Part shown: positions 4,201 through 64,000 of the stretch, in pieces
Layout: each line of letters opens with the position of its first letter
Numbering within the stretch: position 1 is the stretch's first letter
Assembly (NCBI GenBank): GCA_016700035.1
Contig: CP064998.1
Location: 59,325 to 123,324 of the forward strand
Direction of reading: 5' to 3'
Origin: a bacterium
Lineage (GTDB): Bacteria > Patescibacteriota > Saccharimonadia > CAILAD01 > GCA-016700035
DNA: 64,000 nt
Notes under the pieces: model-generated
Database searches by the model: none
Told to the model about the DNA's origin: nothing
Seen by the model: the letters and a program-made list of their open reading frames with translations, nothing else
Position numbers and translations under genes: made by a program

Positions 4201-4326
4201 ATGGCTTTAGTTGTAATGCTGATGATTGCAATGGTGGCGGCTCTTATTTGGTATGCATTTAATGGTGGTAAACAGGCCACTACTCCAAGATCCACTCCAG
4301 CTGAAACAGTGATTCCAATCGACTAG
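4201..4326 (+). CDS. putative 41-aa single-TM small protein
   Basis: ATG preceded by GGAGGG at 9 nt spacing. The peptide MALVVMLMIAMVAALIWYAFNGG... is strongly hydrophobic. It is the 3' part of a longer 70-aa track ORF. Coding status is unproven. Confidence 0.3.
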   Translation: MALVVMLMIAMVAALIWYAFNGGKQATTPRSTPAETVIPID

Positions 4327-47400: not shown

Positions 47401-48431
47401 CCAAAGTAGCCGGCAATGGTCCATTCTGTAGCACCAATGCCTATATACTTGGTCGTGATGGTAATGCAGGTACGATGTCTGATTTGAATAGTTGTGATTT
47501 TAAACAATATAACTTTGCGCTAAGAGCTAATTTGGAGCGAGCCTTGAGTGCTCAGACGCCAGTATCCGAAGAGCTAATTTATCGGGAAGCTTTTCAGGCT
47601 TATGATGATGCCCCAACCAGTTGCCCGTCAACTGGGCCCGAGCCTAGTGGCCCTGCTAGATATGTTAATGGTGGAACTTATGATGGTAGTGGTGCATTGC
47701 CGGGTATCTCAGCTAATAACTGCCCCACTATAAGGGTGCTAGATGGGGTGCGTGACGGCAGCTATAAGACATTGGGTGCAAATCCAAGTTTACCTTTACC
47801 TGTCGTTCCAATGTTAGTTACGTCTAGGGGTACAGTTTTGGTAGATGGCGATCTTTACATTAATACAAATATTGTAAATGCGCCTTCTGCACCAAGTTTT
47901 AATCGAGATGACCTGAATGCCCTCAATCAACTGCCAAACCTAGGGATAATTGTAAAAGGTAATATTATTATCGACAAAGACGTTACTAGAATTGATGCCT
48001 CGCTCTATGCTAGTGGCAAGATAAAAACTTGCGAGAACTTATATAATCCAAGCTCATCGACAGAAAACGACCCAAATACTTCTAACGGTTTCAAGCTAGA
48101 AGGCGGTACCGTTGCAGAGAATACTCAGGCTGCACGTTGTAGTAAGCAACTCAAAATACATGGCGTGATGGCATCTAAGGGTGGCTTTATGCTGGGGCGT
48201 AATTTTGTGGACTTTAGTGCAATGGCTGGGGCTGGACGTATTGGTCGTTCTCGATTTAGTGCCGATTTTGAATATGATGCGCGACGTGGCCTGTATTATG
48301 GTCAGCCAGCCGAAGATGTTGTCTTTAATGGATTGATGCTGATTTTGCCGCCACCAGGCTTTGAGCATCTTTCAAACCCAGATTTCTTCCAGGCGCGCTA
48401 TACGTCTGAGAGCGCTCAACCTCGCTTCTAA
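44439..48431 (+). CDS. giant membrane-anchored surface protein A (1330 aa), paralog of the downstream gene
   Basis: About 70 aa of basic cytoplasmic N-terminus, a signal-anchor TM (VAVFAGFVGLFILVSLAAVWLL), then a G/T/N/S/Y/W-rich Cys-pair-containing ectodomain with beta-helix-like repeats. Conserved C-terminal tail PPPGFEHLS...QPRF. Confidence 0.85.
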   Translation: MPNKSIDSIGPKPNKNNIKPVAEHRAGEVVRPKGAPTQAGESIKPKGYQAPKKLESTVGKPDQPKRPVNKKKVAVFAGFVGLFILVSLAAVWLLRGTNLLNSVGKPKPAAGNFAEVGDQASTLDEFNKVKDAYQGFNKKQATPADSQVVAANASRDLITYLALKSEAVKQGVECTWEIVDTRMATQYQSYGGKEAFYAYLAQEYGWSKEVSFMKTCTEYYREVLAQKVIGGTDAFGVYIRWDNMDNDSTAQQRATYEQEAKARLERDFLPLFKSGASKEEIYRAADISPYSTDVEFDKKMETPGSPWVRTVEYPRLNETTYASFQQYPEGERDIDYISKLAVGENTVVFKSKVGYYAIFRATNRIQGEAGSIDQVIQKYIDGAKLSTEYYALPKPSSNGQEQFDMHDLKQDNTTGMLDSMRQALVPTARAVNCFTNHRLPMSIIYTDYATGQLIPLEQIRTNKGAPISTLQILSTGNVQAACNDEPAPIQNAYGVLNFGYWAGRASWDVFDHRNNPWAFNLSCYTSWEFRFNKVYGYEQVNYQDASQFEVTLLTNQWIVQNRASAYTDHYRIPPDLYQGIANGALGYSINVRMRKEPPTTGWNPPLMTVSGEKQEEDGTTIGAYADNTVSEQPNNFTSSGQPYSFPGLRADQGHVFTVETEPNYDVLGYRINGGPINQSTTYTYVAGTTGDGTTLDVDWIFRRRPTVNLSVTCALISGNVIGGGGATIETYARVGGADLVDGAGQRIIQGRNFSFTVPEAYKDGVGRTVELRLIVDGVDWGAAAATTLSCNRNALCSNNNLGTVFPGNRVTIGVGGQEEGISIAMSNNGESIWSTYSTGTYQLVLTPEADIYWDIVAGTSVPAGEKIYPQPNPISGKTFAPITVTLTASPSDSTTPLGFQMAFIPDGGGAAQRFGTACSTELRVLSSYGPWLRTQNGNVSAMGVIKGQEALSLTGGNLGGRRAAGSAGTTADGQKDDINLEATYLLLSKVAGNGPFCSTNAYILGRDGNAGTMSDLNSCDFKQYNFALRANLERALSAQTPVSEELIYREAFQAYDDAPTSCPSTGPEPSGPARYVNGGTYDGSGALPGISANNCPTIRVLDGVRDGSYKTLGANPSLPLPVVPMLVTSRGTVLVDGDLYINTNIVNAPSAPSFNRDDLNALNQLPNLGIIVKGNIIIDKDVTRIDASLYASGKIKTCENLYNPSSSTENDPNTSNGFKLEGGTVAENTQAARCSKQLKIHGVMASKGGFMLGRNFVDFSAMAGAGRIGRSRFSADFEYDARRGLYYGQPAEDVVFNGLMLILPPPGFEHLSNPDFFQARYTSESAQPRF

Positions 48432-48515
48432 AAGCTCCAACCACATCTTGTATGCAATAGTGTGTTCAGGTACGATATACATAAGCGTTTTTGAGGTTAG
48501 TTTGTTAGTTTATTT

Positions 48516-51500
48516 ATGAGTCCAAAGCCCATAGACCCCATTTCTCCAAGTCAAAAGGCTTCGGCCGAGTCAGCTGAGTCTATCATTCCACGGAATGCAG
48601 ATTCAGCTCAGGTTTTAGCAGAAGCCAAATCAAGACTAGAGTCCGCCAAAGAGGAACAATCTAGATCTCGCCGGAGGCTATTATTCTGGGGATTACTGGC
48701 TGGTTTGATCATATTTTTGGTTGGTGCTGGAGTTATTGCATATAAAGCATTAGAAGATAAAAAGCTGGCTGAAGATGAGTATGCGGTTATTGAGGGGCGA
48801 TCCATAAAACAGTCTGAGTTTGAAGCTCTGCGCGACGCATATATTCGTTATGATCAACAAAAAGGGCAAAGTGATAAACGTATATCTGAGAGGCGTGCTG
48901 CCGATGAGCTAATGACCAGAGTTGGATTAGAGGTACGGGCTGAGAAGTATGGTATAGGAGTTACTCAAGATGATATTGACTCTTATTTGGCGCCAGCGTA
49001 TTTGCAGTATGGGTCTAGGGATGGCTTACTAAGATACAACCAACATCTTTATGGCTGGGATGAAAAACCTCTATATCATAAAGCTAAGTTAGATTTATTA
49101 AAGCAAAAACTACAATCAAAGATAATTGCGGAGATGGATTTATTGGGTGTGTATATTAGGTGGGATAATCACATGGATAAGTCTGAAGAATTTCAAAAAG
49201 AATATGGGCGTAAGGCTGTTGAACGACTGGAAAAAGATTATCTTCCGAGACTCAATGGAGGCCAAGTCGCAGGTGACTTTATTAAAACAACGGACGTAAA
49301 CGCGTCTCTGCCTGTAGAATTGAATAACGAAAGGCTTAATAAAACTGACGACCCCATAGTACGTTATCTGGAGTTAAAGTCAGCGGTTAATGACCCTAAA
49401 AATGATCCTTTTCAGCACGGGCAGAAAGCTAGTGATGCAAAGTCCGCTTGGGCAGAGATAGAGAAGCTTGAGAAAGTAGGGGACACTACGCCGGTTTTCA
49501 AATCTGATAGTGGTATGTATTTAGCCTTGCGTATCGAAAGGAAGTCAGAAGGCGAATACATAAGCTATGAGTCATACCTCAAAAAAGCTATACAAGAGGG
49601 AAAAGTAGACAGCAGTTATAATGAACTACCAATACCGGATAATGGCCGCAACATTCTACCAACACCAACAAGTAGTGCGGATGTAAGTTTGCTTGCCAAG
49701 TTTCTACCAAAAGCTACTGCTTCAGGGTCGAGAGACTGTTGGGCACAAGACCCCCTTCAGTATGAGATGCGGCCAGCAGATGGTAGTGCGGGTTATGCGT
49801 CAATTACTAATAATCCATTTACGGTACTTGTAGTTCGTTCTGGATCCGATACGTGTATTCCGTATAATGGTTTTGGTTATTTTATGAATGCGCAAGGAAG
49901 ACAAGCGTGGACATCTCCGAATGTGCAGCACGGTATGGTGATACCGCTCAATTGTTATGGTGTAGTGTGGGATTTTGCTTGGTCAGCTCCTAGTGGCTAC
50001 CAGGGCTTTACCGCGGGTGATTATCAGGCTCCAAACAGAATATTAACCGGTTTTGGATCTGGTCTTGTATGGGCACCATCTGACATATCGGGGCTTTGGA
50101 GAAATGCGAATATCTATTATGGTATTGCAAACGGCGCTGGTCGCTATGCGGTAGCACCTATCTTTTATCCTGATGCACCACCCCCACCACCACCACCTCT
50201 CTACAATATTACCGGATGGAAAGCTGATCGCTACGGCAATGCAACGCCACAAGTTGCTGGTGCTGTAGTTCGAGATACTAGTGTGGGTGATTCAAGTGCG
50301 ACGCAACCATTTACGCTAAATGGAAGAAATCAAGCTCAAGACCATATTGTCCAAGCTCAGGATACACCAGACTGGACTGCGACTGGCTGGGAGCTAGTGA
50401 ATAATGGTACATCTGGTAATCAAAACTATTATGGTTTTCCGGCCAGTTCAACACCAGTTAATTCAACCCAATCAATGATTTTTCGTTATGAACCACGTCC
50501 ATCTAGCGTTAGAGCTGGGATACTTGTAAAAGATCCTTCTACGGGTGCTTTATCAAACCCATGCACACAGTCAGGTTATCAGAATGTACCATGTAGTAGC
50601 GGGACGAATGTTACCTTGCAACGTACCTTTAATTTACCGCCTGGTTTAGTAAATTCTTATTCAAATGCAACAATGAGTCAGACTACATCAAATGGGGCAG
50701 CTACATATGGGGGTCTTTATACTGGTAGTTATACAGCAACAGCTAGTGGTATTCCGGCAGGCTGGCAGATAGTGGGCACTTATCAGTGTAGCGATAATGC
50801 TGATCCAAGCAATTGTTTTCCAGCCGATGGGGCGGGTGTTAGCCCAAATTCTAATGGTGTGATGCCGATTTGGATAGAAGCTAATCGTAGTCGGCCGGTA
50901 TTTTACGTATTGCAACCAAATCAAATGGCACTAAAGGGAGATAAGAAAGGGCCGGGGACATTTACTAGTACTCAAAATAGCGATACTACCAACTTAGGTG
51001 TTGGGACTATAATGGTTGGCGCTCAGACGGTTTCTGGCAATAATCAGGCTGGAGCTTGGAATGCTCCACTTAACTTTAATCCTTCCAGTGGTGCATATAG
51101 TGTGCGTGCGGTAGCTCCGGCAGGCTGGCGAATTCGTGGCTATGCATTTTGTGCGTCAGCCTCAGCACTGTCTAGTTGTGCGTCAAATGATGCTGTTTTG
51201 GCGCCAAATAATCAAACTCAGGGCCAACTTATTCTTGGCGGCAATGATACAACAGATTATTCATTAAACATTGATTATACAAATCCAGATGGCCAAGCTC
51301 GGTTTAATGGTGTAGTAATTCCGGCTGGAGGACAACTTTGGGTAACCTTTTTCTTTAAGCCAGCACCAGTAACAATTCAGGTACGAGGCAAGATAGACAT
51401 GCAAGGAGGCAATGGTACCGCCAATACCGACCTTAATCCCTGCGCATTCAATGACTATAAAAGAAATCTTTGCACCCAGACTGAACTACAACCCGTGCGC

Positions 51501-54500
51501 ATGAATACGCGTGGTCTCCCTATTACTAGTAATCCAACGATGATTGATATTGATGATCCTGCGGGTGCATCTGGGGGTGGTGCTTGTGCGTCTAAGGATT
51601 ATGTGCCAACTAAGCCGGGTTATAATTATGGGAGTTTTGCCAGTTCGGGCTTTTACTGTACTAATGAGGGTGGTAACGGCAGTATTACTCAAGCCAAATT
51701 TATTACCGGTAACAGTCCTTTGCGCTATGGTATGACTTTAGATGCTAGAACGGGTGGCGTTGGCAATAATACTAATCCAGCAGAGAATAATCTTGCTATT
51801 GTTCGCAATGTTTATCCTGGTAAATATAGCTTTCAGATGAAAGGCCTACCACAATATAATGGAGAAGATGCTTACAATGTAGCACAAGCCACCTGTGCGC
51901 CAAATCAGCTAGATTGCTCAATGAGCACTGCGCCAATCAATAATGTTGATGGTTGTCTTTTAAATCATCGTCGACAGGCGGAGTATACGGCTGTCACGTA
52001 TTTTTTGTGGTGGCCTATCTATACACCAATTGTTGCACCTTATAATGCATCTGCCCTAAATGACCCAGCTGGTCAGAATTACTGTACTATTATGTGGTCT
52101 GGTGCACCAGGGGCAGATAATTGGCCAAGTGGAGGAACACCACAATCTTGGAATATTTCCGCTCAAAGACCACGCCAATGCCTGCTAACTAATGGCGTGT
52201 GGGCTTATAATCCACAATGGAATGCGGGCACGGGTAGCTATGGGATAGATGCAAGTGGTACATCGCCTTGCGGTTATCGTAAGGATGCTAAAACAACTGG
52301 CCCAAATACTTTTACAATGGGACTTCCAATAGATACTGGCTTCCGGGAGCAAGTATTCTATTATTCGCCCAAAATATTAGCCACAAATACAAATCTAACT
52401 TGTGATAATTATTCAGCTACTGTGGTATTTATGCCGGATCCTTCACGACCAGTGACGACATACTATCGATTTGGGCGGTATGGTCAGCCAGCCACAACTA
52501 CTTTAATGCGCACCGATAGTTCGACAGGTGGAGATGTGATGTTGGCTACAACTCAGACTAGTGGACCTAATGCGCATCAAATACGTATAGATATACCAAA
52601 ATATAATGGTCAGGGTGGAGAATTATTGAAGGATGGAGATCGTCGTTCGTTTGAGGTCTATGCTCGCTATGGTGATAGTTCTAGTAATAGCCCAGATGGC
52701 GACTTAGTAAATGGCTATGGTTCCGAGAGAGATTGGGGCTCAGCATTTGGATCTTGGAAGTATGCACCAGCTAGAATTTCTTCTTTAACACATCAGTGTC
52801 AGAATAATGCAACTTGTGATCAGGCTAGCTTCAATAATCAGCTCAATGCTATTGCTATTATGGATGCAGATGATCCACAAGCCAATACAATCGATGTGAC
52901 AGTGACGAACACCGGCCATAGCTTTTGGCAACAGAATGTAAATGAGAATGGTGCGTCAATTACAACTGGCCACGAACTGACAGTTACGGGGGGTACCTTA
53001 CTAGCTGCAAGTATAAATGATTCGCGTGGTTGGTATATTGCTGGGCCAGATTATCGCATGGCTGATGGGACGCAGGTTTATCCAGTCGCTTTAAATCCGA
53101 GTGCTTCAACCTATAAATTTACAATGCATATAAATCCGCCAAAAGATGGTGGTAGTAAGTTTACACTTGGTTTTCAAATGCGCCAGTACAAGCCAAGCTC
53201 TGGCTATACGGAAGTATTTGGTACAGCCTGCGAAGGGCAAATGGAGATCAAGGTTAGTTATAAGCCATGGTATCGAGTTCAAAATGGTAATGTAACGGCA
53301 CTGGGGGAGATTCGAGATCAGCCTGAATCTGCTCGAGGTATGTATAAGGCTGAGAATCGTACTAATAATAATCCATATCCAGGTAGTGTGGATAATGTAG
53401 CTAAGTTAAAAACTGACAGTGCCAAGCCAGTGATGAACTTGCATGCTCAATTTTCGGTTGTCGCCGAGGGTGGGGGGACAAACTTCTGCTCTACAAACTT
53501 TTATATGCTAGGCATTGCCGACCCACCAAATAGTTTTACGCCAAATGCTTCACAGCAGAGTAGAAAGTGTAGTTTTGGTGGTATGGATTTGAATATTCCT
53601 CAGGCTGAGGATTCTAATGGTGACGGTACAAAAGAGCTTAAAAATGATCAGCTGATTGTTACGGCTAATAACGCTTATCGCGATAATGGGCAGTGTGTTG
53701 ATGTAGGAAGCAATCCAGAAGATGATGGTGGCCCATATGAACTTTCAGCACCCACTAAATATTATCGGTCTTGGGAATCAGCGCCTTATGACGTGCCGAG
53801 TTTGAAGTGGAGTACTGAGCAAAAGCCAAATAATAGTGACGATGGCCCATTTGGGCGGCATGCTTCTGGTAATCCGGCTGAGCGAGGGTTGTATCTTGTA
53901 AATATCACCAATAATCCATTGCATCGTCCTTGCCCAACTATATTTAAGCTTGATACGCCATCAAATCCGTCCAATCAGTTTGTACAAAGTGGCTATCGAA
54001 GACTCGGCGGCTTCATTTATGGCGCTGGTCGCTCTACAATTCTTTCTGATCAAACCATATATATTACTGATAATATTACGGTTAGTATTCCGACATCACC
54101 ACCGTATAGCTTTCAGAGAAATGGAGTGCCAGATATGGCTGGGCTGAATGCAGTGCCAAATCTTGGCATTATATCGGAGGGTGATATTGTGGTGGCTAGT
54201 AATGTGGAAAGAATTGATGCCTCATTGTATGCCAAAGGCAGGATTATAACCTGTGATCAATATGTGCCAAACTCTGGGCTAAATGAAGATGCTGGTAAGA
54301 CCGATCAACCGGGCTCGACCGGCACCAAGTGGATTCGACGCGGTGCTGGCATTGGCTTGGATTCTAACCCACTAGCCAGTGAGACGACTGATCCAAATGT
54401 AATTGAGGCACCGAATGCTGATAATGCGGAAGCCAAAAAATGCGCAAACCGACTCAAGATCACTGGCAGTGTGACCGGTGGGTCTGGTTTTACTCTGGGG

Positions 54501-54863
54501 CGTAATCATATTGATTTTAGTGAAATGGTACAGCGTTGGGGTAATAACGAAGGTGGAGCTTTTGGTGGACAGTCGCCTCAGGAGTTTGGTAAGTTTTGTA
54601 ATTTGTCAGATGTGATTGGTATCCGTCGGGTATGTAATCTGTATGGTGTGCGCAAAGATTTTGATTCTCCTGATAATACAGGGGCTACCTACTGGCTAGC
54701 TGAAAAAGCCGGTTGGCCACAAAATTATTATACTGGTGGACCGGCAGAAGACTTTGTTGGTAACGGTATATCAAGCTTTATGCCACCACCTGGTTTTGAA
54801 AATATCAGTACATCTGCGCAAACTGCCAAGTATTATAAGAATACTGCCCGACCTAGGTTTTAG
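48516..54863 (+). CDS. giant membrane-anchored surface protein B (2115 aa), paralog of the upstream gene
   Basis: N-terminal cytoplasmic segment, a TM (LLFWGLLAGLIIFLVGAGVIAY), then an ectodomain sharing several colinear blocks with protein A (GVYIRWDN, LGFQM...FGTAC...PW.R.QNGNV, NLGII..G.I....V.RIDASLYA.G.I.TC, ..LKI.G.....GF.LGRN..DFS.M). It also has a poly-Pro stretch, internal repeats and a C-terminal tail PPPGFENIS...RPRF. Confidence 0.85.
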   Translation: MSPKPIDPISPSQKASAESAESIIPRNADSAQVLAEAKSRLESAKEEQSRSRRRLLFWGLLAGLIIFLVGAGVIAYKALEDKKLAEDEYAVIEGRSIKQSEFEALRDAYIRYDQQKGQSDKRISERRAADELMTRVGLEVRAEKYGIGVTQDDIDSYLAPAYLQYGSRDGLLRYNQHLYGWDEKPLYHKAKLDLLKQKLQSKIIAEMDLLGVYIRWDNHMDKSEEFQKEYGRKAVERLEKDYLPRLNGGQVAGDFIKTTDVNASLPVELNNERLNKTDDPIVRYLELKSAVNDPKNDPFQHGQKASDAKSAWAEIEKLEKVGDTTPVFKSDSGMYLALRIERKSEGEYISYESYLKKAIQEGKVDSSYNELPIPDNGRNILPTPTSSADVSLLAKFLPKATASGSRDCWAQDPLQYEMRPADGSAGYASITNNPFTVLVVRSGSDTCIPYNGFGYFMNAQGRQAWTSPNVQHGMVIPLNCYGVVWDFAWSAPSGYQGFTAGDYQAPNRILTGFGSGLVWAPSDISGLWRNANIYYGIANGAGRYAVAPIFYPDAPPPPPPPLYNITGWKADRYGNATPQVAGAVVRDTSVGDSSATQPFTLNGRNQAQDHIVQAQDTPDWTATGWELVNNGTSGNQNYYGFPASSTPVNSTQSMIFRYEPRPSSVRAGILVKDPSTGALSNPCTQSGYQNVPCSSGTNVTLQRTFNLPPGLVNSYSNATMSQTTSNGAATYGGLYTGSYTATASGIPAGWQIVGTYQCSDNADPSNCFPADGAGVSPNSNGVMPIWIEANRSRPVFYVLQPNQMALKGDKKGPGTFTSTQNSDTTNLGVGTIMVGAQTVSGNNQAGAWNAPLNFNPSSGAYSVRAVAPAGWRIRGYAFCASASALSSCASNDAVLAPNNQTQGQLILGGNDTTDYSLNIDYTNPDGQARFNGVVIPAGGQLWVTFFFKPAPVTIQVRGKIDMQGGNGTANTDLNPCAFNDYKRNLCTQTELQPVRMNTRGLPITSNPTMIDIDDPAGASGGGACASKDYVPTKPGYNYGSFASSGFYCTNEGGNGSITQAKFITGNSPLRYGMTLDARTGGVGNNTNPAENNLAIVRNVYPGKYSFQMKGLPQYNGEDAYNVAQATCAPNQLDCSMSTAPINNVDGCLLNHRRQAEYTAVTYFLWWPIYTPIVAPYNASALNDPAGQNYCTIMWSGAPGADNWPSGGTPQSWNISAQRPRQCLLTNGVWAYNPQWNAGTGSYGIDASGTSPCGYRKDAKTTGPNTFTMGLPIDTGFREQVFYYSPKILATNTNLTCDNYSATVVFMPDPSRPVTTYYRFGRYGQPATTTLMRTDSSTGGDVMLATTQTSGPNAHQIRIDIPKYNGQGGELLKDGDRRSFEVYARYGDSSSNSPDGDLVNGYGSERDWGSAFGSWKYAPARISSLTHQCQNNATCDQASFNNQLNAIAIMDADDPQANTIDVTVTNTGHSFWQQNVNENGASITTGHELTVTGGTLLAASINDSRGWYIAGPDYRMADGTQVYPVALNPSASTYKFTMHINPPKDGGSKFTLGFQMRQYKPSSGYTEVFGTACEGQMEIKVSYKPWYRVQNGNVTALGEIRDQPESARGMYKAENRTNNNPYPGSVDNVAKLKTDSAKPVMNLHAQFSVVAEGGGTNFCSTNFYMLGIADPPNSFTPNASQQSRKCSFGGMDLNIPQAEDSNGDGTKELKNDQLIVTANNAYRDNGQCVDVGSNPEDDGGPYELSAPTKYYRSWESAPYDVPSLKWSTEQKPNNSDDGPFGRHASGNPAERGLYLVNITNNPLHRPCPTIFKLDTPSNPSNQFVQSGYRRLGGFIYGAGRSTILSDQTIYITDNITVSIPTSPPYSFQRNGVPDMAGLNAVPNLGIISEGDIVVASNVERIDASLYAKGRIITCDQYVPNSGLNEDAGKTDQPGSTGTKWIRRGAGIGLDSNPLASETTDPNVIEAPNADNAEAKKCANRLKITGSVTGGSGFTLGRNHIDFSEMVQRWGNNEGGAFGGQSPQEFGKFCNLSDVIGIRRVCNLYGVRKDFDSPDNTGATYWLAEKAGWPQNYYTGGPAEDFVGNGISSFMPPPGFENISTSAQTAKYYKNTARPRF

Positions 54864-54951
54864 AGGATAGATAATAAATGGAGGCGTCATAACAAAATAG
54901 GTGCAAAAGGGGGAGTACTAATTCAAAATAGTTATGCTAAAATAAGAACAC

Positions 54952-55989
54952 ATGGAATTATTCGTTGAAGATGAACATTATTTTGGAGTTGACCTCGGTA
55001 ACTCCGGTATCCGATTGGTTGAGCTTAAACTAATTCATGATAAGCCCACACTCGTTACTTATGGTGATATTGAATTACCGTTTGGACTGATGAGTTCTGA
55101 TTCTCCAGCTGATCAGGCGCGAATTTCAGAGATACTCAAAAAGCTGGTATCAGACGCTCGTGTGAGTACCAAAAATGTTGTAGCTGGTTTACCGGCTAGC
55201 AAAGTATTTGCCAGCGTGCTTAAACTGCCACAGATGGCTGATAATGAAATTGCCCACACTATTCGCTTCCAGGCCGATAAATATATTCCGATGCCAATTG
55301 ATCAGGTGAAGCTAGATTTTTTCCGTATAACTCGCGATAAGGAAGCTGAAGAGATCGATGTATTATTGGTTGCCACACCAACCAGTATTGCCAATAAATA
55401 CCTTAATATTTTCCAGCAAGCTGGACTGGAGTTGATGGCTTTAGATATTAATGCAATTGCTCAGTCGCGCTCGATGGTACCAAATGCTGATATTGATGTG
55501 GTGGTAGTAGATTTTGCTTCTTTAACCACTGATATTGGCCTAATATCGGCTGGAATTCCGGGACTGATTCGATCGGTTAATGTGGGTGCTAAATCTCTTA
55601 TTCGAGTGACATCTCAAAACCTTGGTCTCGATGAAGTGCAGGCCGAGCAGTTTGTGCGTAAGTTTGGCCTAACTCAAACTAAGCTAGAGGGGCAAGTTTA
55701 CCGCTCGATGAAGCCGTTACTTGATAATGTAGTAGAAGAGATTAAGCGCTCAATGGAGTTCTTTTACCAAAGTAACTCTGGCCGTAAAGTGGAGAAGATT
55801 GTTATTACTGGTGGTCCGGCAGCAATTCCAGAAATGCCGGTTTATCTTGCAAATGCACTGGGCTTACCCGTTGAAATGGGTAATCCATGGCAGAAGATTA
55901 GCTATGCCACTGAGTTTACAGACCGCTTGTCGGGTATGGCGTTAAGTTATTCCACATCGGTTGGTTTGGCGTTAAGGAATATGGTGTAG
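54952..55989 (+). CDS. pilM: type IV pilus assembly protein PilM (actin-like ATPase fold)
   Basis: FGVDLGNSGIRLVELK has an N-terminal actin-like fold. The ORF is 345 aa, first of the pilMNO order. Confidence 0.8.
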   Translation: MELFVEDEHYFGVDLGNSGIRLVELKLIHDKPTLVTYGDIELPFGLMSSDSPADQARISEILKKLVSDARVSTKNVVAGLPASKVFASVLKLPQMADNEIAHTIRFQADKYIPMPIDQVKLDFFRITRDKEAEEIDVLLVATPTSIANKYLNIFQQAGLELMALDINAIAQSRSMVPNADIDVVVVDFASLTTDIGLISAGIPGLIRSVNVGAKSLIRVTSQNLGLDEVQAEQFVRKFGLTQTKLEGQVYRSMKPLLDNVVEEIKRSMEFFYQSNSGRKVEKIVITGGPAAIPEMPVYLANALGLPVEMGNPWQKISYATEFTDRLSGMALSYSTSVGLALRNMV

Positions 55990-55992
55990 GCT

Positions 55993-56619
55993 ATGTCGGT
56001 TCGGATCAATTTGCTCCCCGAAGCCCGTATGATAAAGCTGAAAAATCAGCAAACCAAACGCTTGGTTACGGTGGTTTGCTTGGTTCTTTGCAGTAGTGTA
56101 GGGATTGTCTTAGTGGTATTACTCCTGCTTTTGGGTGCACGCAATATTCAGTTTGCTACTAACAAGGGAAATATCGAAGAGCTGAATAAAAAGATTGCTG
56201 CTAAAGCTGGTGTAGAGCAAGATGTGGCATGGTTTAATGGAGCTCTTACCGAAGCTGATTCACTTTCTAATAATCGAATTCTCATCTCGCAGCTTTTTGG
56301 TCAACTAGCTAATGCTGCACCTCCTGGCATTAAGATTGCAAGTCTATCGGTGGATCCAGAGTATAAGGTCAAAGCATCGGTTGAGGCGACTGACTTTAAT
56401 AATGTGGCACTCTTTATGAATGCCTTAAAGACTTATAATGTTGAGTTTAATCCGATTGCTGGTTTTGATAGGGTGCCAGTTTTTACCGATGTTGATGTTC
56501 AGGCTGTTACCAAGCGTAAGCAGACTGATAATGCCAACTTTGAAGTAAGCTTTAAAGTTGATGAGAAGCTAGTAAAGAAATTCCGTGAAGACAGTAAGGC
56601 GAATGAGGAGAATAAATAA
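55993..56619 (+). CDS. pilN: type IV pilus assembly protein PilN
   Basis: 208 aa. INLLP motif near the N-terminus, a single TM, then a periplasmic-type domain. Confidence 0.7.
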   Translation: MSVRINLLPEARMIKLKNQQTKRLVTVVCLVLCSSVGIVLVVLLLLLGARNIQFATNKGNIEELNKKIAAKAGVEQDVAWFNGALTEADSLSNNRILISQLFGQLANAAPPGIKIASLSVDPEYKVKASVEATDFNNVALFMNALKTYNVEFNPIAGFDRVPVFTDVDVQAVTKRKQTDNANFEVSFKVDEKLVKKFREDSKANEENK

Positions 56620-57356
56620 TGGCACCCACTAAGAAGCCAGCCACTCCTGTTGCTAGCAAAAAAAAGCTGGTTCCACCGCAAACTCCAGGTACGGAGGCTG
56701 CCATGCAGGGAATTCGCAATTATCTTATCATTGCGATTGGTGTTACGGTGCTGGTTGTTTTAGTTGGGGGTTATTTTATATATACTCTGGCGCAATCTAA
56801 TGTTAAGAAAGCCCTGGAAGTTCGAGCTCAGGAATATCAAATTAAGCTTTCGGAGAATAAAATTGCCAAACTCGATGAAGCTGAACCTGAGATCCTAAAA
56901 CTTAAACAAGCAGATGGCGATAAGCCATCAAGATTTGATTTTATTACTCAACGCACATTGCCAGAAAATGAAGATTTTGAAGCTATTTTAACTATCTTTA
57001 ACCGTCTCCAAAAAGACTATCAAGTAGATATTGAGTCTATTACTAAACCGGGCACCGCTACTGCTGGAGTTGCAACTACAGCAAGGAGCACACCAAACAC
57101 AACTGGTGCTGGCAAATCTCAGTCTAGTTTAATTGCAATTAAGGCCACTGGATCGCAAGAAGCAGTAATTAGCTTCTTACAAGCGCTAGAATCATCATCA
57201 CGTATCTTTGACTTTTCAACAATGAAGATTTCGAGTGAACAGGGTAGCTTTTCATTGGATATGCAGTACAAAATTTATGCCATGCCAAAACCTTCAATCA
57301 ATAGCACAGATGTAAAAATTGATGAATACGAAGCTGATAAAGGAAAATACGAATGA
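56619..57356 (+). CDS. pilO: PilO-like pilus assembly protein
   Basis: 245 aa. N-terminal TM plus coiled coil, and position after pilN. It overlaps pilN by TAATG. Confidence 0.55.
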   Translation: MAPTKKPATPVASKKKLVPPQTPGTEAAMQGIRNYLIIAIGVTVLVVLVGGYFIYTLAQSNVKKALEVRAQEYQIKLSENKIAKLDEAEPEILKLKQADGDKPSRFDFITQRTLPENEDFEAILTIFNRLQKDYQVDIESITKPGTATAGVATTARSTPNTTGAGKSQSSLIAIKATGSQEAVISFLQALESSSRIFDFSTMKISSEQGSFSLDMQYKIYAMPKPSINSTDVKIDEYEADKGKYE

Positions 57357-57604
57357 AAAAACGAGATATTATAGGGCTGGTAATAGCGGTTGCGCTAATT
57401 GCGATTACTGGAGTACTACTATATACACAATTAGCCCCCGCTCCAAAAGATACTGGTATATCGGTTAGCGTACCAGCTAAGGTGGCTGTGCCATTATCCG
57501 ATCCAAAAGATCAAGAAAAATTAACTGAGTTGGAGCGTTACGAGGACTTCTCAAAGCCACAGCAGTGTACGAACGAGACTTGTGGACGAGAGAACCCATT
57601 GTAG
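57353..57604 (+). CDS. small single-TM protein in the pilus operon (PilP-like or accessory, unknown)
   Basis: 83 aa with an N-terminal TM. It overlaps pilO by ATGA and ends with a Cys pair (CTNETC). Confidence 0.45.
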   Translation: MKKRDIIGLVIAVALIAITGVLLYTQLAPAPKDTGISVSVPAKVAVPLSDPKDQEKLTELERYEDFSKPQQCTNETCGRENPL

Positions 57605-57628
57605 CCCTAGCGAGGTAGATACTATAAA

Positions 57629-59422
57629 ATGCTGACGTTAGAAAATCAAAAGATCATCGAAAATATGATTGTGCAGGGCGATATTGTCCCGCACGATGTG
57701 TTGGAGATTGCAAAATTGCGGTCCGCCAAAGAGAGCAAAGGACTTTTACAGGTATTATTAGATATGAAGGCTTTATCTGAGGATGATTCAGTTAAGCTAA
57801 TTGCTATTTCAAAAAAGATTCCCTTTGTTGATTTGATGCATCTGGATCGCCCTGTTGATCAAAAGGTTCTGGAGATGGTACCACTTGAAATTGCCAAAAC
57901 CTACATGGCCGTACCGTTTGGGGTGTCTAATAGCTCGTTAAATGTTGCATTGCTTGACCCAACTAATTTGCAGGCGATCGATTTTATATCGCGTAAAACT
58001 GGCTACACTATTAATCCATATATTGCTTCTCAGGCCGGTATTGATTTTGTGCTGGGGATGTATAAAGAGAAGTTTTCTCAAGAAGTATCAGAGGTTTTAA
58101 AGAATATTGCTTCGGCTCAAAAAGAAGAAGTTGAGGCTGAAAAAAAGACTGTTCAAGATCAGAAAAAGATCAACGACATTGTTCAGGATGCACCAATTAC
58201 TCGAGCCCTCAATACTATTTTAGAGTATGCAATTAACTCACGAGCATCAGATATTCATGTTGAACCCCGTCAAAAAGAGCTGAAGATTCGGTTTCGTGTC
58301 GATGGTATTTTGCAGGAAGTGATGACGTTACCAAAAACCACCGAAGCAGCCCTTATCTCTCGTATTAAAATTATGTCTAATCTCAAGATTGATGAGCACC
58401 GTATTCCTCAAGACGGGCAAGCGGTATATATTTTTGCTGGTCGCGAAGTTGATTTGCGTATTGCGATTGCGCCAATTAGCTATGGGGAACAAGTGGTAAT
58501 TCGTATTTTGGATAAGAACGCCCAAAATATTACTCTGGATACGCTAGGCTTTAGGGGGCGTAGTTTACGCCTTATTACATCTGGTATGCATAAGCCACAC
58601 GGTATGATTCTATCAACTGGCCCAACTGGTTCAGGTAAATCCACTACTCTGTATGCGGTGGTGGGGGCAATTAAATCGGTGGCAATCAATATTGTGACGC
58701 TTGAAGACCCGGTGGAATATAAAATGGAGGGTATTAACCAAATTCAGGTTAATACGGCGGTGGGGCTAACCTTTGCTAATGGTTTACGGTCTATTTTGCG
58801 TCAGGACCCTAATGTGGTGCTAGTGGGGGAGATTCGTGATGCCGAAACGGCCGATCTAGCCGTGCAGGCAGCGTTGACTGGACACACAGTACTTTCCACA
58901 CTCCACACCAACTCCGCAGCTGGTGTTTTACCACGTATGCTAGATATGAAGATTGAGCCATTTTTGATTGCCTCAACCGTCAACACTGTAATTGGCCAGC
59001 GCCTAGTGCGTCGCGTTTGTCAAAAGTGTAAGCAAGCTTATGCGGCGCCGGGCACAGCGGTGGAGCTAATTAATAAGATTATAGGTTCATTTTTACCTAA
59101 AACTCAGGCCGAAGTGCAGGCTAAAGAGCAAGAATATGGATACGAGGGTTTGCCACTCTATAGTCAAAACGCTTATACTTTATATAGGGGGGTAGGCTGC
59201 GACGAATGTAAAGATGGTTACTCTGGTCGTATTGGTATCTTTGAGGTGTTTGAGATGAATCCAGCGATGGAAAAGCTCTTGCTCAGTAGGGCAACCACCA
59301 ACGATATTCAGAACCAGGCAATCAAAGATGGCATGCTGACTATGCAACAAGATGGCTATCTAAAGGCATTAACAGGTGTGACCACCGTAGAAGAAGTGGC
59401 ACGTGTGGCAACCGATCATTAG
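57629..59422 (+). CDS. pilB: type IV pilus extension ATPase PilB (GspE family)
   Basis: N-terminal GSPII_E_N domain, Walker A GPTGSGKST, Asp/His boxes and tetracysteine zinc motif CQKCK...CDECKDG are present. The ORF is 597 aa. Confidence 0.9.
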   Translation: MLTLENQKIIENMIVQGDIVPHDVLEIAKLRSAKESKGLLQVLLDMKALSEDDSVKLIAISKKIPFVDLMHLDRPVDQKVLEMVPLEIAKTYMAVPFGVSNSSLNVALLDPTNLQAIDFISRKTGYTINPYIASQAGIDFVLGMYKEKFSQEVSEVLKNIASAQKEEVEAEKKTVQDQKKINDIVQDAPITRALNTILEYAINSRASDIHVEPRQKELKIRFRVDGILQEVMTLPKTTEAALISRIKIMSNLKIDEHRIPQDGQAVYIFAGREVDLRIAIAPISYGEQVVIRILDKNAQNITLDTLGFRGRSLRLITSGMHKPHGMILSTGPTGSGKSTTLYAVVGAIKSVAINIVTLEDPVEYKMEGINQIQVNTAVGLTFANGLRSILRQDPNVVLVGEIRDAETADLAVQAALTGHTVLSTLHTNSAAGVLPRMLDMKIEPFLIASTVNTVIGQRLVRRVCQKCKQAYAAPGTAVELINKIIGSFLPKTQAEVQAKEQEYGYEGLPLYSQNAYTLYRGVGCDECKDGYSGRIGIFEVFEMNPAMEKLLLSRATTNDIQNQAIKDGMLTMQQDGYLKALTGVTTVEEVARVATDH

Positions 59423-59446
59423 TAATTATATTTAAGAGGAATTATT

Positions 59447-60712
59447 ATGCAGCCAACAGATCCAAACAGCCCAGCCCAGCCCAGCGGAATTCCTATTGAT
59501 GGAGTAAGTGGGGTAGTTTCTAGTGTACCGCCAGCAGCCCAAACTCAAACTCCGGCTCCGGTAGCTCCAAGCCAAAGCCCCGCACCGGCTCCAGCTGCAG
59601 AAGTAAGTGCGGCCGATCAAGTGCACCAGATGGATTCGAGTCAACATGCCGGCAAGCTTTCCATCGAGCCGTATTTGGAGGAAGTTATCCGTCGAGATGC
59701 TTCAGATATCCATATTCAGGTTGGCTTACCACCAATGTTGCGCGTTGACGGGGCATTGGAACCAATTAAAGATGTGGAACCACTGACTGCCGAAGGTATT
59801 GATGATATTATTTTTAGCCTCCTCGATGATGATCAACGCGAAGTGTACCTGAAAGATAAAGAAATTGACTTTTCTTTTGCGTATGGCGATTTGGGTCGTT
59901 TTCGTGTTAATGCCTTCCACGAAAAGGGTAACCCAGCTGGTGCGTTTCGACTTATTCCAAACAAAATTCGGACCGTAGAAGATCTTGGTTTACCGCCGAT
60001 TATGAATAAGCTAACCGAATTTCCGCGTGGCTTGGTGCTGGTTACTGGCCCAACTGGTTCGGGTAAATCTACTACCTTGGCTGGTATGCTCGATAAAGTG
60101 AATCGTGAGCGGGCGGTGCATATCATCACCATTGAAGATCCTATCGAATATCAGCATCATCATAAGAAATCTATTGTGGTTCAGCGCGAAGTACACTTTG
60201 ATACCAAGAGCTTCTCCTCCGCACTTCGCTCCAGCTTGCGGGAAGATCCCAACGTAGTGCTTATCGGTGAGATGCGCGACCTAGAAACTATCTCCACCGC
60301 CATTACGGTGGCAGAAACTGGCCACTTGGTGTTTGCCACACTTCACACTAACTCGGCAGCTCAGTCGATTGACCGTATGGTAGATGTTTTCCCACCCCAC
60401 CAACAGCAGCAAATCCGTATTCAGTTATCTAGCGTATTGCAAGGGATTGTGGCGCAACGACTCATTCCGATGATTGGTGGTGGCCGTATGGCGGTGGCAG
60501 AAATTCTAGTGGTTACTCCAGCTGTACGTAATATTATTCGTGAAGGCAAAACCCACCAGCTCGATGCTGTTATTCAAACTGGTGCCGAATACGGCATGCA
60601 GTCCATGGACGCTACACTTGCACATCACATTCACGAGGGTAAGATTAGCTATGAAGAGGCCAAGAATTATGCTGTTAACTTAGAGGAGTTAGATCGCTTA
60701 ATGCGACACTAA
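59447..60712 (+). CDS. pilT: type IV pilus retraction ATPase PilT with a Pro/Ala-rich N-terminal extension of about 60 aa
   Basis: PilT core DIHIQVGLPPMLRVDG, Walker A GPTGSGKST, and the AIRNLIRE-type motif (AVRNIIREGK) are present. SD aagagga precedes the annotated ATG. Confidence 0.85.
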   Translation: MQPTDPNSPAQPSGIPIDGVSGVVSSVPPAAQTQTPAPVAPSQSPAPAPAAEVSAADQVHQMDSSQHAGKLSIEPYLEEVIRRDASDIHIQVGLPPMLRVDGALEPIKDVEPLTAEGIDDIIFSLLDDDQREVYLKDKEIDFSFAYGDLGRFRVNAFHEKGNPAGAFRLIPNKIRTVEDLGLPPIMNKLTEFPRGLVLVTGPTGSGKSTTLAGMLDKVNRERAVHIITIEDPIEYQHHHKKSIVVQREVHFDTKSFSSALRSSLREDPNVVLIGEMRDLETISTAITVAETGHLVFATLHTNSAAQSIDRMVDVFPPHQQQQIRIQLSSVLQGIVAQRLIPMIGGGRMAVAEILVVTPAVRNIIREGKTHQLDAVIQTGAEYGMQSMDATLAHHIHEGKISYEEAKNYAVNLEELDRLMRH

Positions 60713-60729
60713 GTGGGCAATAAAAAACG

Positions 60730-61974
60730 ATGCTAGATTTTCAATATAAAGCTAAAGACAAATCGACAGGCCGAATCATAGTTGGTTCTATTCAGGCCGA
60801 TAATGAAATGGCTGCCGGTAAATTGCTTTTAAAGCAAGAGCTTTATCCGATCGAGATGAAGCCCAAAAAAGCCTCAGCTTTCTCGACTAGCAATGCTCAC
60901 GCTAAAGCTAAAACCAAGCATAAGGTTGTATTTACTCGCCAGCTAGCTACACTCATTAAGGCTGGTCTACCGGTAGCGGCAGCTCTAAACTCTTCAATGA
61001 GCCAGGTGGATGACAAGACTATGAAGTCGGTCATCTTCAAGCTGACTAAATCAGTGGAAGGTGGTACCCAGCTCTCCCAAGCTCTAGCCGAGTATCCAGA
61101 AAACTTTAATACCATCTACATTTCTATGGTGCAGGCTGGTGAGGCCAGTGGTAATCTAGAAATTACCCTAGAGCGCCTAGCCACCCAATTGGAAAAAGAG
61201 GCTGAAATTACTGCCAAAATTCGTGGCGCGATGATTTATCCGGCTATCGTACTGGTGGTAATTCTTTTGGTGATGGGCTTTATGATGACCAGCGTGGTAC
61301 CACAAATTGCCGAGTTGTATAAGAGTTTTAATAAGTCTCTGCCTTGGATAACTCAAATAATGATGTTTGGTTCGGATATGATTACCAAGTGGTGGTTTAT
61401 TACATTTCCATTTATTGGAGCGGTTATTTTTGGTATCTTTAAATACCTCAAAACTCCTATGGGTCAGCATAATATGGCTCGGACAAAGCTCACTATGCCA
61501 CCGTTTAATCAGCTCTTTTTAAAGATGTATATGGCTCGGTTTTCACGTACGCTAGGAAGCTTGGTAGCTAGTGGCATACCAATTTTAGAATCACTCAAGC
61601 TGGTTTCAGAAAGCTTAAATAATGATATTTTAAAAGCCGAAGTTGAGATAATGGCGGATGAAGTAAAATCTGGCCGAGCCCTGTCTGAAGCTCTGCATAA
61701 ATCTGAGTATTTTTTACCGCTAGTGAGTCAGATGATAAAAGTTGGGGAAGATTCTGGGACAATGAGCGATATGCTCGACCGCCTTGCCACTTTTTATGAA
61801 AATGAAGTAGATCAGGCTGTAAAAAATATTTCTACCATTATTGAGCCAGTACTGATAGTGGTTATGGGTGGGTTAGTCGTACTGATGATAATTGGCGTCC
61901 TGTATCCAGTTTATAATTTAGTAGGGCAAGATTTAAGTGGCGGCGGTGGTGCTACTACAACTAGCGGGCAGTAG
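60730..61974 (+). CDS. pilC: type IV pilus platform protein PilC (GspF family)
   Basis: Two GspF repeats and three TM segments. The ORF is 414 aa. Confidence 0.85.
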   Translation: MLDFQYKAKDKSTGRIIVGSIQADNEMAAGKLLLKQELYPIEMKPKKASAFSTSNAHAKAKTKHKVVFTRQLATLIKAGLPVAAALNSSMSQVDDKTMKSVIFKLTKSVEGGTQLSQALAEYPENFNTIYISMVQAGEASGNLEITLERLATQLEKEAEITAKIRGAMIYPAIVLVVILLVMGFMMTSVVPQIAELYKSFNKSLPWITQIMMFGSDMITKWWFITFPFIGAVIFGIFKYLKTPMGQHNMARTKLTMPPFNQLFLKMYMARFSRTLGSLVASGIPILESLKLVSESLNNDILKAEVEIMADEVKSGRALSEALHKSEYFLPLVSQMIKVGEDSGTMSDMLDRLATFYENEVDQAVKNISTIIEPVLIVVMGGLVVLMIIGVLYPVYNLVGQDLSGGGGATTTSGQ

Positions 61975-62002
61975 TTGACGCCAGCTCACAGTTTGCTATT
62001 AT
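61975..62002 (+). promoter_or_regulatory. candidate strong promoter of the major pilin gene, TTGACG-16-TATTAT
   Basis: TTGACG at 61975-61980 and TATTAT at 61997-62002. A 46-nt leader carries SD aaggagg at 62037-62043. Confidence 0.5.
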
Positions 62003-62048
62003 AAGCATAAGCGTTATAAAAATACGTGAATATTATAAGGAGGTCTTT

Positions 62049-62453
62049 ATGACAGATAAAAAAATGAAAAAAGGGTTTACCCTGATTGAAATTGTAATTG
62101 TACTGGCAATTGCGGCTTTGATTATGGTGGTTGTATTCTTTGCCGTGCAGGGTGCTCAGCGCGAACAACGTAATACTACTCGCAAGGATGTAGCTAACCG
62201 TGTTAAAGCCGCTATGGTGACTGCACGCGGTAATAATAATGGCGGTACTGTCACTGATGCAGTATTAGCAACCTATGTACCTGCTGCAGAGCGTGCTATG
62301 GGGGCAACAACTATCGGTGTTGCTACTGGTGTTGTCTTTGCGGCCGGCTGTACTGTTAATAATACAGTTAATGTGCAGTGGGCTACTCCAGATACGGCAT
62401 CTATTTGTCTCGAAACAGGTGGTGCTACAGGTGTACCATATTTAGCTCGTTAG
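62049..62453 (+). CDS. type IV major pilin (class III signal peptide, cleavage G|FTLIE)
   Basis: MTDKKMKKG|FTLIEIVIVLAIAALIMVVV with Glu at +5, and a C-terminal Cys pair forming the usual disulfide loop. The ORF is 134 aa. Confidence 0.85.
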   Translation: MTDKKMKKGFTLIEIVIVLAIAALIMVVVFFAVQGAQREQRNTTRKDVANRVKAAMVTARGNNNGGTVTDAVLATYVPAAERAMGATTIGVATGVVFAAGCTVNNTVNVQWATPDTASICLETGGATGVPYLAR

Positions 62454-62473
62454 TGAATCTACCAACACCAAAC

Positions 62474-62497
62474 GAGCCCCCGCATGGGGGCTTTTTG
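62474..62497 (+). terminator. strong intrinsic terminator after the pilin gene
   Basis: gagccccc gcat gggggctt followed by ttttt. Confidence 0.7.
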
Positions 62498-62532
62498 GTT
62501 ATTGGTAATGCTTTCGCATATAATAAGCTTAT

Positions 62533-63333
62533 ATGAATGGTGAGTGGTCAGGATTTCTTATATTTTTAGTTGGTATTTATGGCCTGCTCGTCGGCTCATT
62601 TCTAAATGCCTGGGTGTGGCGGGTGCATACGCATCGCAAGGTGTCTAAGGGGCGCAGTATGTGCCCCCATTGCAAGACAACGCTACATTGGTATGAGCTT
62701 TTACCAGTTCTATCCTGGTTGGGCCTAAAAGGCAAATGTCGAACCTGCCACAAGCTAATATCTTGGCAGTATCCAGCCGTGGAGCTCGCTAATGCCGGCT
62801 TGTGGGTGGCACTTCTACTATTTTTTGCTCCGGCTAGCCCACTGGCTTGGTTACAGCTTGGGCTATGGTGTGTGTTGGCCTCCTTGCTGTTGGCAGCCCT
62901 AGTTTACGATACCCGCTGGATGCTCTTACCAGATGCTTTTGTAATGCCAGCTACGGCCGTAGCACTGGTGCTGGCTGGCTTGTCGGCCATGCAGGCTGGA
63001 TCGCTGGCTGAGCTGTGGCCTAAATTGCTAGCTGCCACTATCTTTGCCGGAGTATTTTTCCTTATCTGGCTTGTTTCTGGCGGTAGCTGGATAGGAGATG
63101 GTGATATTTGGCTAGCTGGCATTATGGGCTTGGTTCTTTCTGGTACGCAACTGGTGGTGGCGATATTTGTAGCATTTAATTTGGGCGCAATTGTTGGGCT
63201 GGCGCTAATTGTAATTCATAAAAAAACACGCAAAAGCATGATTGCGTTTGGGCCGTTTTTAATAATTGGCTTATTTGCTGGGCTGTTTTTTGGCGAGGCA
63301 TTATTAAATTGGTACATGGGGATATTCGTCTAG
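62533..63333 (+). CDS. pilD: prepilin peptidase PilD (A24 family)
   Basis: N-terminal zinc motif CPHCK...CRTCH, Asp-containing peptidase core and multi-TM profile are present. The ORF is 266 aa. Confidence 0.85.
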   Translation: MNGEWSGFLIFLVGIYGLLVGSFLNAWVWRVHTHRKVSKGRSMCPHCKTTLHWYELLPVLSWLGLKGKCRTCHKLISWQYPAVELANAGLWVALLLFFAPASPLAWLQLGLWCVLASLLLAALVYDTRWMLLPDAFVMPATAVALVLAGLSAMQAGSLAELWPKLLAATIFAGVFFLIWLVSGGSWIGDGDIWLAGIMGLVLSGTQLVVAIFVAFNLGAIVGLALIVIHKKTRKSMIAFGPFLIIGLFAGLFFGEALLNWYMGIFV

Positions 63334-63386
63334 CCAACCATAAGTGGTATACTTGAGACTAAGCATGCTAAAGTTTTTATCCTTGT

Positions 63387-64000
63387 ATGAAGAAAATCTC
63401 TAAAAGAAATTTACGTTTTAAGTATCTGCTACGGAGCAGGCCTGGTATTTCTTTGGTGGAAGTCATTATGGTGCTGGGGATTTCCAGTATGTTGATTGCT
63501 GGCTCGTTTGCTTGGTTTGATTCACGTAAGAGTAGTGATTTTTATGACCAGGTGCGTCAAATAGAGTCAAAAATTCGTGAAGTTCAGAGTGAGAATACCT
63601 CGAGCTTGGTGCCTGGTTTTACCAGTGATAGTAGATGTTCGCCGGTTGTGACTACAACTTGCCCACTACTTGCCCGTGGTGAAGAGGTATTTGGCACGGC
63701 TGTATCAATGGCTGTACCAAATACTGGTGATACGACAAAACTCAGGATTGGCTATTTTAAGAGAGGCCCTAAACTTGGATCACCACCAGTTCAGGCTTTG
63801 TCTGTGCAGGATTATGAACGTAGCGAAATTGAGTTGCCAGCTACAATTAAGCTGGAGGGTTTTACGGTGTTTGGAGATGCTACCTGTACATCTGGTGCAT
63901 ACAATAATTGGCGCGAACTACCGAATACCGGAGGTAGTGATGCTGGCTATCAGGATTTTAATAGTCCGGGAAATAAATCGATGATTGTGTTTAGGCGTAC
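63387..64000 (+). CDS. pilin-like protein (minor pilin or pseudopilin) with a long class III leader; 3' end outside the window
   Basis: Open frame from ATG 63387 to the window end with no stop, so it is absent from the ORF track. MKKISKRNLRFKYLLRSRPG|ISLVEVIMVLGISSMLIAGSF has Glu at +5 after the Gly cleavage site. Confidence 0.6.
   Translation, partial: MKKISKRNLRFKYLLRSRPGISLVEVIMVLGISSMLIAGSFAWFDSRKSSDFYDQVRQIESKIREVQSENTSSLVPGFTSDSRCSPVVTTTCPLLARGEEVFGTAVSMAVPNTGDTTKLRIGYFKRGPKLGSPPVQALSVQDYERSEIELPATIKLEGFTVFGDATCTSGAYNNWRELPNTGGSDAGYQDFNSPGNKSMIVFRR

Follow-up and report, generated by a model that had tools for sequence, protein, structure and literature searches.

A type IV pilus (T4P) gene locus lies at positions 54952-64000 of the window, the 64,000-nucleotide (nt) stretch of contig CP064998.1 (assembly GCA_016700035.1, positions 59,325 to 123,324) analyzed here. 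The DNA belongs to a Saccharibacterium (TM7), a member of the Candidate Phyla Radiation (CPR) and of a group of very small bacteria whose habitat is other bacteria, and the locus is the core T4P machinery, of the T4P-1 type, of an uncultured representative of this group. Ten open reading frames (ORFs), all on the + strand, are tightly packed in the order pilM, pilN, a divergent pilO, a small gene for a single-pass membrane protein, pilB, pilT, pilC, the major pilin, pilD and a second pilin. Families were assigned by Pfam and NCBIfam searches of the cluster ORFs, and these matches, together with the common orientation, bear out the gene order proposed in an initial annotation made from the letters of the DNA. 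The clustering of these pil genes is far above chance expectation. The genes are as follows (aa, amino acids; TM, transmembrane).

54952-55989, + strand: pilM, cytoplasmic actin-like alignment protein (PF11104, 7.9e-46; TIGR01175, 196 bits, cut-off 133)
55993-56619, + strand: pilN, bitopic alignment protein (PF05137, 25.2 bits, cut-off 22.8)
56619-57356, + strand: divergent pilO, 245 aa, with a TM helix, a coiled coil and a C-terminal domain of two alpha-beta-beta repeats
57353-57604, + strand: small gene, 83-aa single-pass membrane protein (MKKRDI, TM helix, short external tail)
57629-59422, + strand: pilB, extension ATPase (T2SSE, 1.7e-128; MshEN, 1.3e-12)
59447-60712, + strand: pilT, retraction ATPase (TIGR01420, 474 bits, cut-off 319)
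60730-61974, + strand: pilC, inner-membrane platform (T2SSF, 2.3e-64, two stretches)
62049-62453, + strand: pilA, major prepilin, leader MTDKKMKKG followed by FTLIE (N_methyl, 9.5e-08; TIGR02532)
62533-63333, + strand: pilD, prepilin peptidase/N-methyltransferase (A24_N_bact, 7e-29; Peptidase_A24, 2.1e-10)
63387-64000, + strand: pilin 2, a minor pilin at the place of PilV1, truncated at the window end

A Logan contig (L081) is identical to the window across a 2868-nt overlap and then runs past the window end. It supplies the remainder of pilin 2 (315 aa in total), two further prepilins of 201 and 217 aa and a 442-aa PilX-like gene, after which an xerC/D-type recombinase gene follows on the opposite strand. 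Window and L081 together give a full locus of 13 genes with all ORFs intact, five of them pilin-like. The set in the window had been described as complete and as containing two pilin genes; neither statement holds, the window end having cut pilin 2 and separated it from three more pilin-like genes.

The same 13-gene order was found in the related loci L001 and L002, in the identical contig L081 and in the complete TM7-H1 genome (L045, PilT 64% identical), and the order pilM, pilN, pilB, pilT, pilC, pilA, pilD is widely kept in Saccharibacteria (tblastn table of 80 loci). The junction sequences contain the TAATG overlap at pilN/pilO and the ATGA overlap at pilO/small gene that had been reported for these genes. 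The stop/start overlaps, Shine-Dalgarno sequences, promoters and terminator are all kept in relatives. Such conservation, with 13 intact ORFs, leaves next to no likelihood that the locus is a decaying or silent remnant, an idea that has only the divergence of PilN, PilO and the pilins in its favor. Rfam and tRNA scans of the window returned no matches.

The taxonomic position follows from the nearest PilT loci among one-genome-per-species contigs, which are metagenome-assembled genomes (MAGs) of Saccharibacteria throughout, with identities of 91%, 80%, 76% and lower. One contig labelled as a Burkholderiaceae MAG (L049, JAYVTZ010000005.1) carries a Saccharibacteria-type T4P-1 locus with a PilT 71% identical to that of the window and with the same gene order and promoter motifs; this contig is probably mis-binned.

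The core proteins carry the expected motifs. The N-terminus of PilN, MSVRINLLPEAR, contains INLLP, the PilM-binding motif of studied systems. PilB has the Walker A sequence GPTGSGKST and the tetracysteine motif CQKC...CDEC, and its best NCBIfam match is TIGR02538 (546.7 bits, under the equivalog cut-off of 675.65). PilT is preceded by a Shine-Dalgarno sequence, AAGAGGA, ahead of its ATG at 59447; its residues ~66-420 match solved PilT structures with E-values of 1e-108 to 1e-111, and its translation contains AVRNIIREGK, a variant of the AIRNLIRE motif. CPHC...CRTC and GDGD motifs are present in PilD. The extension and retraction ATPases of the initial annotation are thus both confirmed, PilB by its T2SSE and MshEN matches and PilT by a TIGR01420 score above the cut-off. 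The components that define a type IVa pilus (T4aP), namely a PilB-type ATPase, a PilT-type ATPase, a PilC platform with a PilD peptidase and a PilM-PilN-PilO complex, were all found in the cluster. The first ~65 aa of PilT (59447-59640) form a Pro/Ala/Ser/Gln-rich extension. It can be aligned with the proteins of L001 and L002 and has no counterpart in solved PilT structures or in the 356-aa PilT of the cultured strain TM7x.

The scores of PilB and PilC against GspE and GspF of the type II secretion system (T2SS), 541.5 and 371.5 bits, come close to those against the PilB and PilC models, and a T2SS has been annotated in Saccharibacteria by earlier genome papers (PMC10633639). The locus could on these grounds encode a T2SS-like pseudopilus that exports proteins and not a surface pilus. 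However, both scores lie below the respective cut-offs of 630 and 424, GspC, GspD, GspK, GspL and GspM were not found among the family matches of the cluster, and the locus has PilMNO and, in PilT, a genuine retraction ATPase. Pili of the matching type have, moreover, been seen on cultured relatives (PMC12206443, PMC9894109). A secretion pseudopilus is hence very improbable, and the cluster is treated below as a T4P locus.

The 245-aa ORF behind pilN had been called pilO-like. The exact protein is deposited in NCBI as hypothetical protein IPM44_00565, and it gave no direct Pfam or NCBIfam match, PF04350 included (none at E <= 0.01); a search of PDB sequences with the profile of its family also returned nothing significant (Thermus PilN, E 1.3). 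The same family profile retrieved 163 representatives among 1.84 billion proteins, and 89 of the 109 sampled carry PF04350 PilO (best E 3.2e-14). The fold matches P. aeruginosa PilO. The ORF is therefore called a divergent PilO, with support from the intermediate profile and the fold; the name stands on this evidence, but not on a direct family match.

The 83-aa protein encoded between pilO and pilB matched no Pfam or NCBIfam family. ORFs of 72-115 aa with an N-terminal TM helix and an MK(K/Q)xDI start fill the pilO-pilB slot in 29 related loci, and the slot is that of TM7x_00430, a locus tag missing from the published table of TM7x pil genes (Grossman Table S3, PMC12206443). The protein is too short for PilP and has no lipobox. 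Judged by its sequence and position, it is most economically read as an extra subunit of the alignment complex, and it may be a fourth subunit in the place of PilP.

The major pilin gene occupies the position of TM7x pilA1 and is preceded by a strong Shine-Dalgarno sequence, AAGGAGG. Its product has the features of a T4aP pilin: the leader is short, position -1 is G, +1 is F and +5 is E. Mature PilA has 125 aa and two C-terminal cysteines, a pair also present in the L001 and L002 pilins, and its match to solved pilins is limited to the N-terminal helix. The start of pilin 2 has been corrected to 63387. The 20-aa basic leader and the residues I/S/L/V/E at +1 to +5 that had been attributed to this protein are present as MKKISKRNLRFKYLLRSRPG followed by ISLVE, with I at +1; the N_methyl match is sub-threshold (17.3 bits). 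Among 106 Saccharibacterial prepilin ORFs the mode of leader length is 8 aa, and 13 have leaders of at least 18 aa, so that the leader of pilin 2 belongs to the upper tail, as claimed, but is not unique. At +1, only 7 of the 106 ORFs have a non-aromatic residue (I, V or L), and such a residue recurs in the pilin 2 counterparts of L001 (V), L002 (I) and L020 (I). Of the genes that L081 adds, the 201-aa prepilin has the cleavage site G|MTLIE (N_methyl, 24.3 bits) and the 217-aa prepilin G|YTLLE; the 442-aa PilX-like protein has no recognizable site for PilD.

Four transcription signals were assigned within the locus.

54932-54943, + strand: extended -10 box of pilM, TTATGCTAAAAT, ending 8 nt 5' of the pilM ATG, with no Shine-Dalgarno sequence between
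61975-62012, + strand: pilA promoter, with -35 box TTGACG (61975-61980), a 16-nt spacer, TG-extended -10 box TATTAT (61997-62002) and AGCATAAGC (62004-62012)
62474-62498, + strand: intrinsic terminator of pilA, GAGCCCCC-GCAT-GGGGGCTT followed by a T run
62519-62524, + strand: TATAAT box of pilD, 8 nt 5' of the pilD ATG, with no Shine-Dalgarno sequence

The pilin promoter had been placed inside the 3' end of pilC. Its -35 box in fact begins one base past the pilC stop codon (61972-61974), and the promoter is intergenic. L001 and L002 keep TTGACG and TATGAT followed by AAGCATAAGC, despite pilins that are only ~50% identical. The strong terminator reported behind the pilin gene is present: the hairpin (62474-62493) has an 8-bp stem with six G-C pairs, and a hairpin with a T run lies 3' of the pilin gene in most related loci examined. 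The conserved -35/-10 pair and the conserved terminator support the proposal of a separate pilin transcription unit. High expression of the TM7x counterpart agrees with it, pilA1 being one of the two most expressed pilins in TM7x (PMC12206443).

The element AGCATAAGC occurs once in the whole window, in the pilA promoter, and 13 related loci also have it ahead of their major pilin gene. At first it was taken as a pilin-specific operator. This assignment was weakened by its reverse complement, GCTTATGCT, which is the usual sequence immediately 5' of the -10 box of pilM promoters. The element may be no operator but the mirror image of a -10 context; readings as a symmetric or bidirectional promoter or as an operator may also be considered.

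The candidate promoters of pilM and pilD are additions of the present analysis. Of the 31 related Saccharibacteria loci listed, 21 have a (G)CTTATG(C/G)TA(T/A)AAT box 6-13 nt ahead of the pilM ATG, and the pilD arrangement of TATAAT and ATG is found in L001, L002 and many other loci. The sequence TTATGNTAWAAT is not enriched across the window (4 found, 5.6 expected). The spacing between -10 box and ATG suggests that the pilM and pilD mRNAs may be leaderless. We infer three transcription units, two of them leaderless: pilM to pilC; pilA, strongly expressed and terminated; and pilD with the minor pilins. On this reading, pilD would be expressed from its own promoter and would not depend on read-through past the pilA terminator. 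An extended -10 box close to the start codon is also present at a 608-aa ORF starting at 42508, where TTATGGTATTAT ends 10 nt upstream of the ATG. Leaderless mRNAs may, as such sequence patterns suggest, be common in Saccharibacteria.

No secretin family match was obtained for any of the 13 window ORFs of at least 400 aa or in the pil cluster. The PilQ secretin, mandatory in the diderm T4aP model, was thus not found among these large ORFs or in the cluster, in agreement with the initial annotation. A LytR-CpsA-Psr (LCP) protein with LytR_cpsA_psr and LytR_C domains is encoded at 4323-5717 on the - strand and is consistent with a monoderm wall; LCP enzymes attach wall polymers to peptidoglycan in monoderm bacteria. 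Across the CPR, PilB, PilT, PilC, PilM, PilN, PilO and PilD are co-localized with no PilQ, which fits the missing outer membrane (Meheust 2019, PMC6744442), and the absence of PilQ was also noted for Parcubacteria in 2015. Because no PilQ was found among the ORFs scanned and PilQ is absent CPR-wide (PMC6744442), the locus is considered a monoderm variant and not a diderm system. The earlier interpretation as a secretin-less system of a monoderm or CPR-type envelope, to which the Saccharibacterial relatives of PilT also point, is supported, and had already been published.

The closest described system is T4P-1 (T4P locus one) of Nanosynbacter lyticus TM7x (TM7x_00415-00475; Grossman 2025, ISME J, PMC12206443), which has the same order of 13 slots: pilM1, pilN1, pilO1, the untabulated TM7x_00430, pilB1, pilT, pilC1, pilA1, pilD, pilV1, pilZ1, pilW1 and pilX1. 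It is the sole machinery set of TM7x with a retraction ATPase, and it has no secretin, as is the case here. TM7x PilX1, like the 442-aa protein of L081, has no PilD site. The two loci differ in the ~65-aa low-complexity extension of PilT and in the two giant genes for membrane-anchored proteins that precede pilM in the window, whereas the TM7x locus-one tags begin at pilM, with nothing tabulated upstream. Locus one is conserved in Saccharibacteria beyond clade G1 (PMC12206443); gene order and this published conservation point to orthology of the present locus with TM7x locus one. T4P1 of Southlakia epibionticum (SEML1_0104-0116; Wang 2023, Cell, PMC10633639) comprises 13 locus tags and is likened to the present locus by this span.

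More distant systems share fewer features. The monoderm T4a-like pili of Firmicutes (Clostridium, Streptococcus sanguinis) have PilB, PilT, PilC, PilD, PilMNO and several pilins in common with the locus and likewise lack a secretin and PilP, but their gene order is different (Melville and Craig 2013, as cited in PMC6744442). A small bitopic gene behind pilO and a leaderless promoter pattern appear to be particular to the present lineage. The diderm T4aP of Pseudomonas, Myxococcus and Thermus have homologous ATPases, platform, peptidase, PilMNO and pilin N-terminus; their PilP, PilQ and TsaP/PilF-type outer-membrane components are absent here.

Taken together, the locus is read as encoding a type IVa-like pilus that has no secretin, is extended by PilB and retracted by PilT, and serves in twitching and host contact (probability of about 0.88). 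In such a pilus, PilD would cut off the basic leaders of PilA and the minor pilins and N-methylate them. PilM would bind the INLLP N-terminus of PilN. The alignment complex in the membrane around the PilC platform would be formed by PilN and the divergent PilO, and probably by the small bitopic protein as well. Polymerization of PilA would be powered by the PilB hexamer and primed by the minor or PilX-like pilins, four in number, whose genes follow pilD, and depolymerization by PilT would lead to retraction. The fiber would exit directly through the wall, a secretin being dispensed with in the absence of an outer membrane. As in cultured relatives, the pilus would power twitching and would be needed to reach and hold the host bacterium.

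The prediction that PilT implies a retractile, twitching pilus agrees with the PilT-dependent twitching observed in cultured Saccharibacteria (Xie 2022, PMC9894109; Grossman 2025, PMC12206443). In strain TM7i, twitching is T4P-dependent and host attachment is quercetin-sensitive (Xie 2022, PMC9894109). In TM7x, the locus-one pilin genes could not be deleted, and locus one was tied to a thick (~3.2 nm) twitching pilus by elimination (PMC12206443). Most of the T4P-associated genes of Southlakia are class I essential (PMC10633639).

Several points weigh against this interpretation. The link between T4P-1 and the thick pilus of TM7x was made by elimination, the genes being essential (PMC12206443). 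The proteins are divergent, with PilB and PilC under the NCBIfam equivalog cut-offs and PilO having no direct family match. The view is limited to 64 kb of the window and 4.7 kb of L081 out of a genome of ~916 kb, so that a secretin may be encoded elsewhere. The counts of the promoter and terminator scan in the window are not above those of shuffled sequences, which leaves conservation in relatives as the support for these sites, and leaderless starts are proposed solely from the distance between -10 box and ATG.

The pilus could instead serve mainly in the acquisition of DNA and nucleotides (competence), with PilT retraction bringing DNA to ComEC. Saccharibacteria are naturally competent and cannot make nucleotides (PMC10633639), T4P-2 of TM7x is reported as dispensable for competence, which leaves T4P-1 as the candidate, and the window contains a gene for RecX at a distance of 17 kb upstream. 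Yet comEC mutants of Southlakia are viable while its T4P genes are essential, so competence does not explain essentiality (PMC10633639). The Com equivalog cut-offs are missed as well (ComGA, 260.7 vs. 300; ComGB, 156 vs. 240; ComGC, 22.6 vs. 75), and Com systems have neither PilT nor PilMNO, both of which are present here. Competence as the main role is therefore considered unlikely; it is not mutually exclusive with motility and attachment, which remain the preferred functions of the pilus.

Type IV pili are central to the way CPR bacteria (Patescibacteria) find, bind and exploit host bacteria, and T4P-1 is essential in both genetically tractable Saccharibacteria. The present locus adds an environmental member and confirms the rigidity of the 13-gene architecture. 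It is an ordinary new example of an experimentally studied system. The by-products of the analysis, none of which changes the current understanding, are a candidate map of three transcription units, a conserved putative subunit missing from the published gene table and a family of giant, putative surface proteins linked to the locus outside the oral G1 clade.

The members of this family that accompany the locus in the window are encoded at the following position.

44439-54863, + strand: two tandem giant paralogues (1330 aa and 2115 aa), directly upstream of pilM

The two proteins are 27% identical in their C-terminal ~765 aa and 24% identical in their N-terminal ~720 aa. Each starts with a basic N-terminal tail and a single TM helix and continues with a SurA_N-like region and a variable middle part; the C-terminal domain is conserved, beta-solenoid-like and ends in PRF. 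The SurA_N-like region is sub-threshold in the window proteins and recorded for homologues. The exact 1330-aa protein is listed in NCBI as hypothetical protein IPM44_00545 [bacterium], and every database relative is likewise annotated as hypothetical. The profile made from the C-terminal domain matches ORFs directly upstream of pilM in 11 related loci, a count that includes weak matches to a subgroup ending in LPPV(L/F). L003 and L014 each have a second, tandem member of the family, giving 13 ORFs across the 11 loci.

From their sequences, the giant proteins may be regarded as associated surface proteins, whose membership in the pilus system is conjectural. Anchored in the membrane in type II orientation, they may cooperate with the pilus, either in adhesion to the host or as partners in the envelope where the pilus exits. 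A broader proposal, that T4P-1 in many environmental Saccharibacteria has undescribed parts, comprising the giant upstream proteins and the small bitopic protein as a subunit in the place of PilP, is put forward tentatively and with considerable doubt. The C-terminal beta-solenoid of the giant proteins is similar to ice-binding/DUF3494 folds and to ComZ, the tip pilin of Thermus; no relevant paper came up in a literature search for ComZ in Patescibacteria.

The window ORFs that were scanned gave no sign of a second pilus machinery. The recX gene lies at 37993-38586 on the + strand and is preceded by a 362-aa ORF (36878-37966) that was left out of the scans; in TM7x, the recAX operon lies inside T4P locus two. 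The 608-aa ORF with the -10 box close to its start codon (42508-44334, + strand) stands just before the giant genes. It has no Pfam match and contains an HD-like motif, LTHDIGK.

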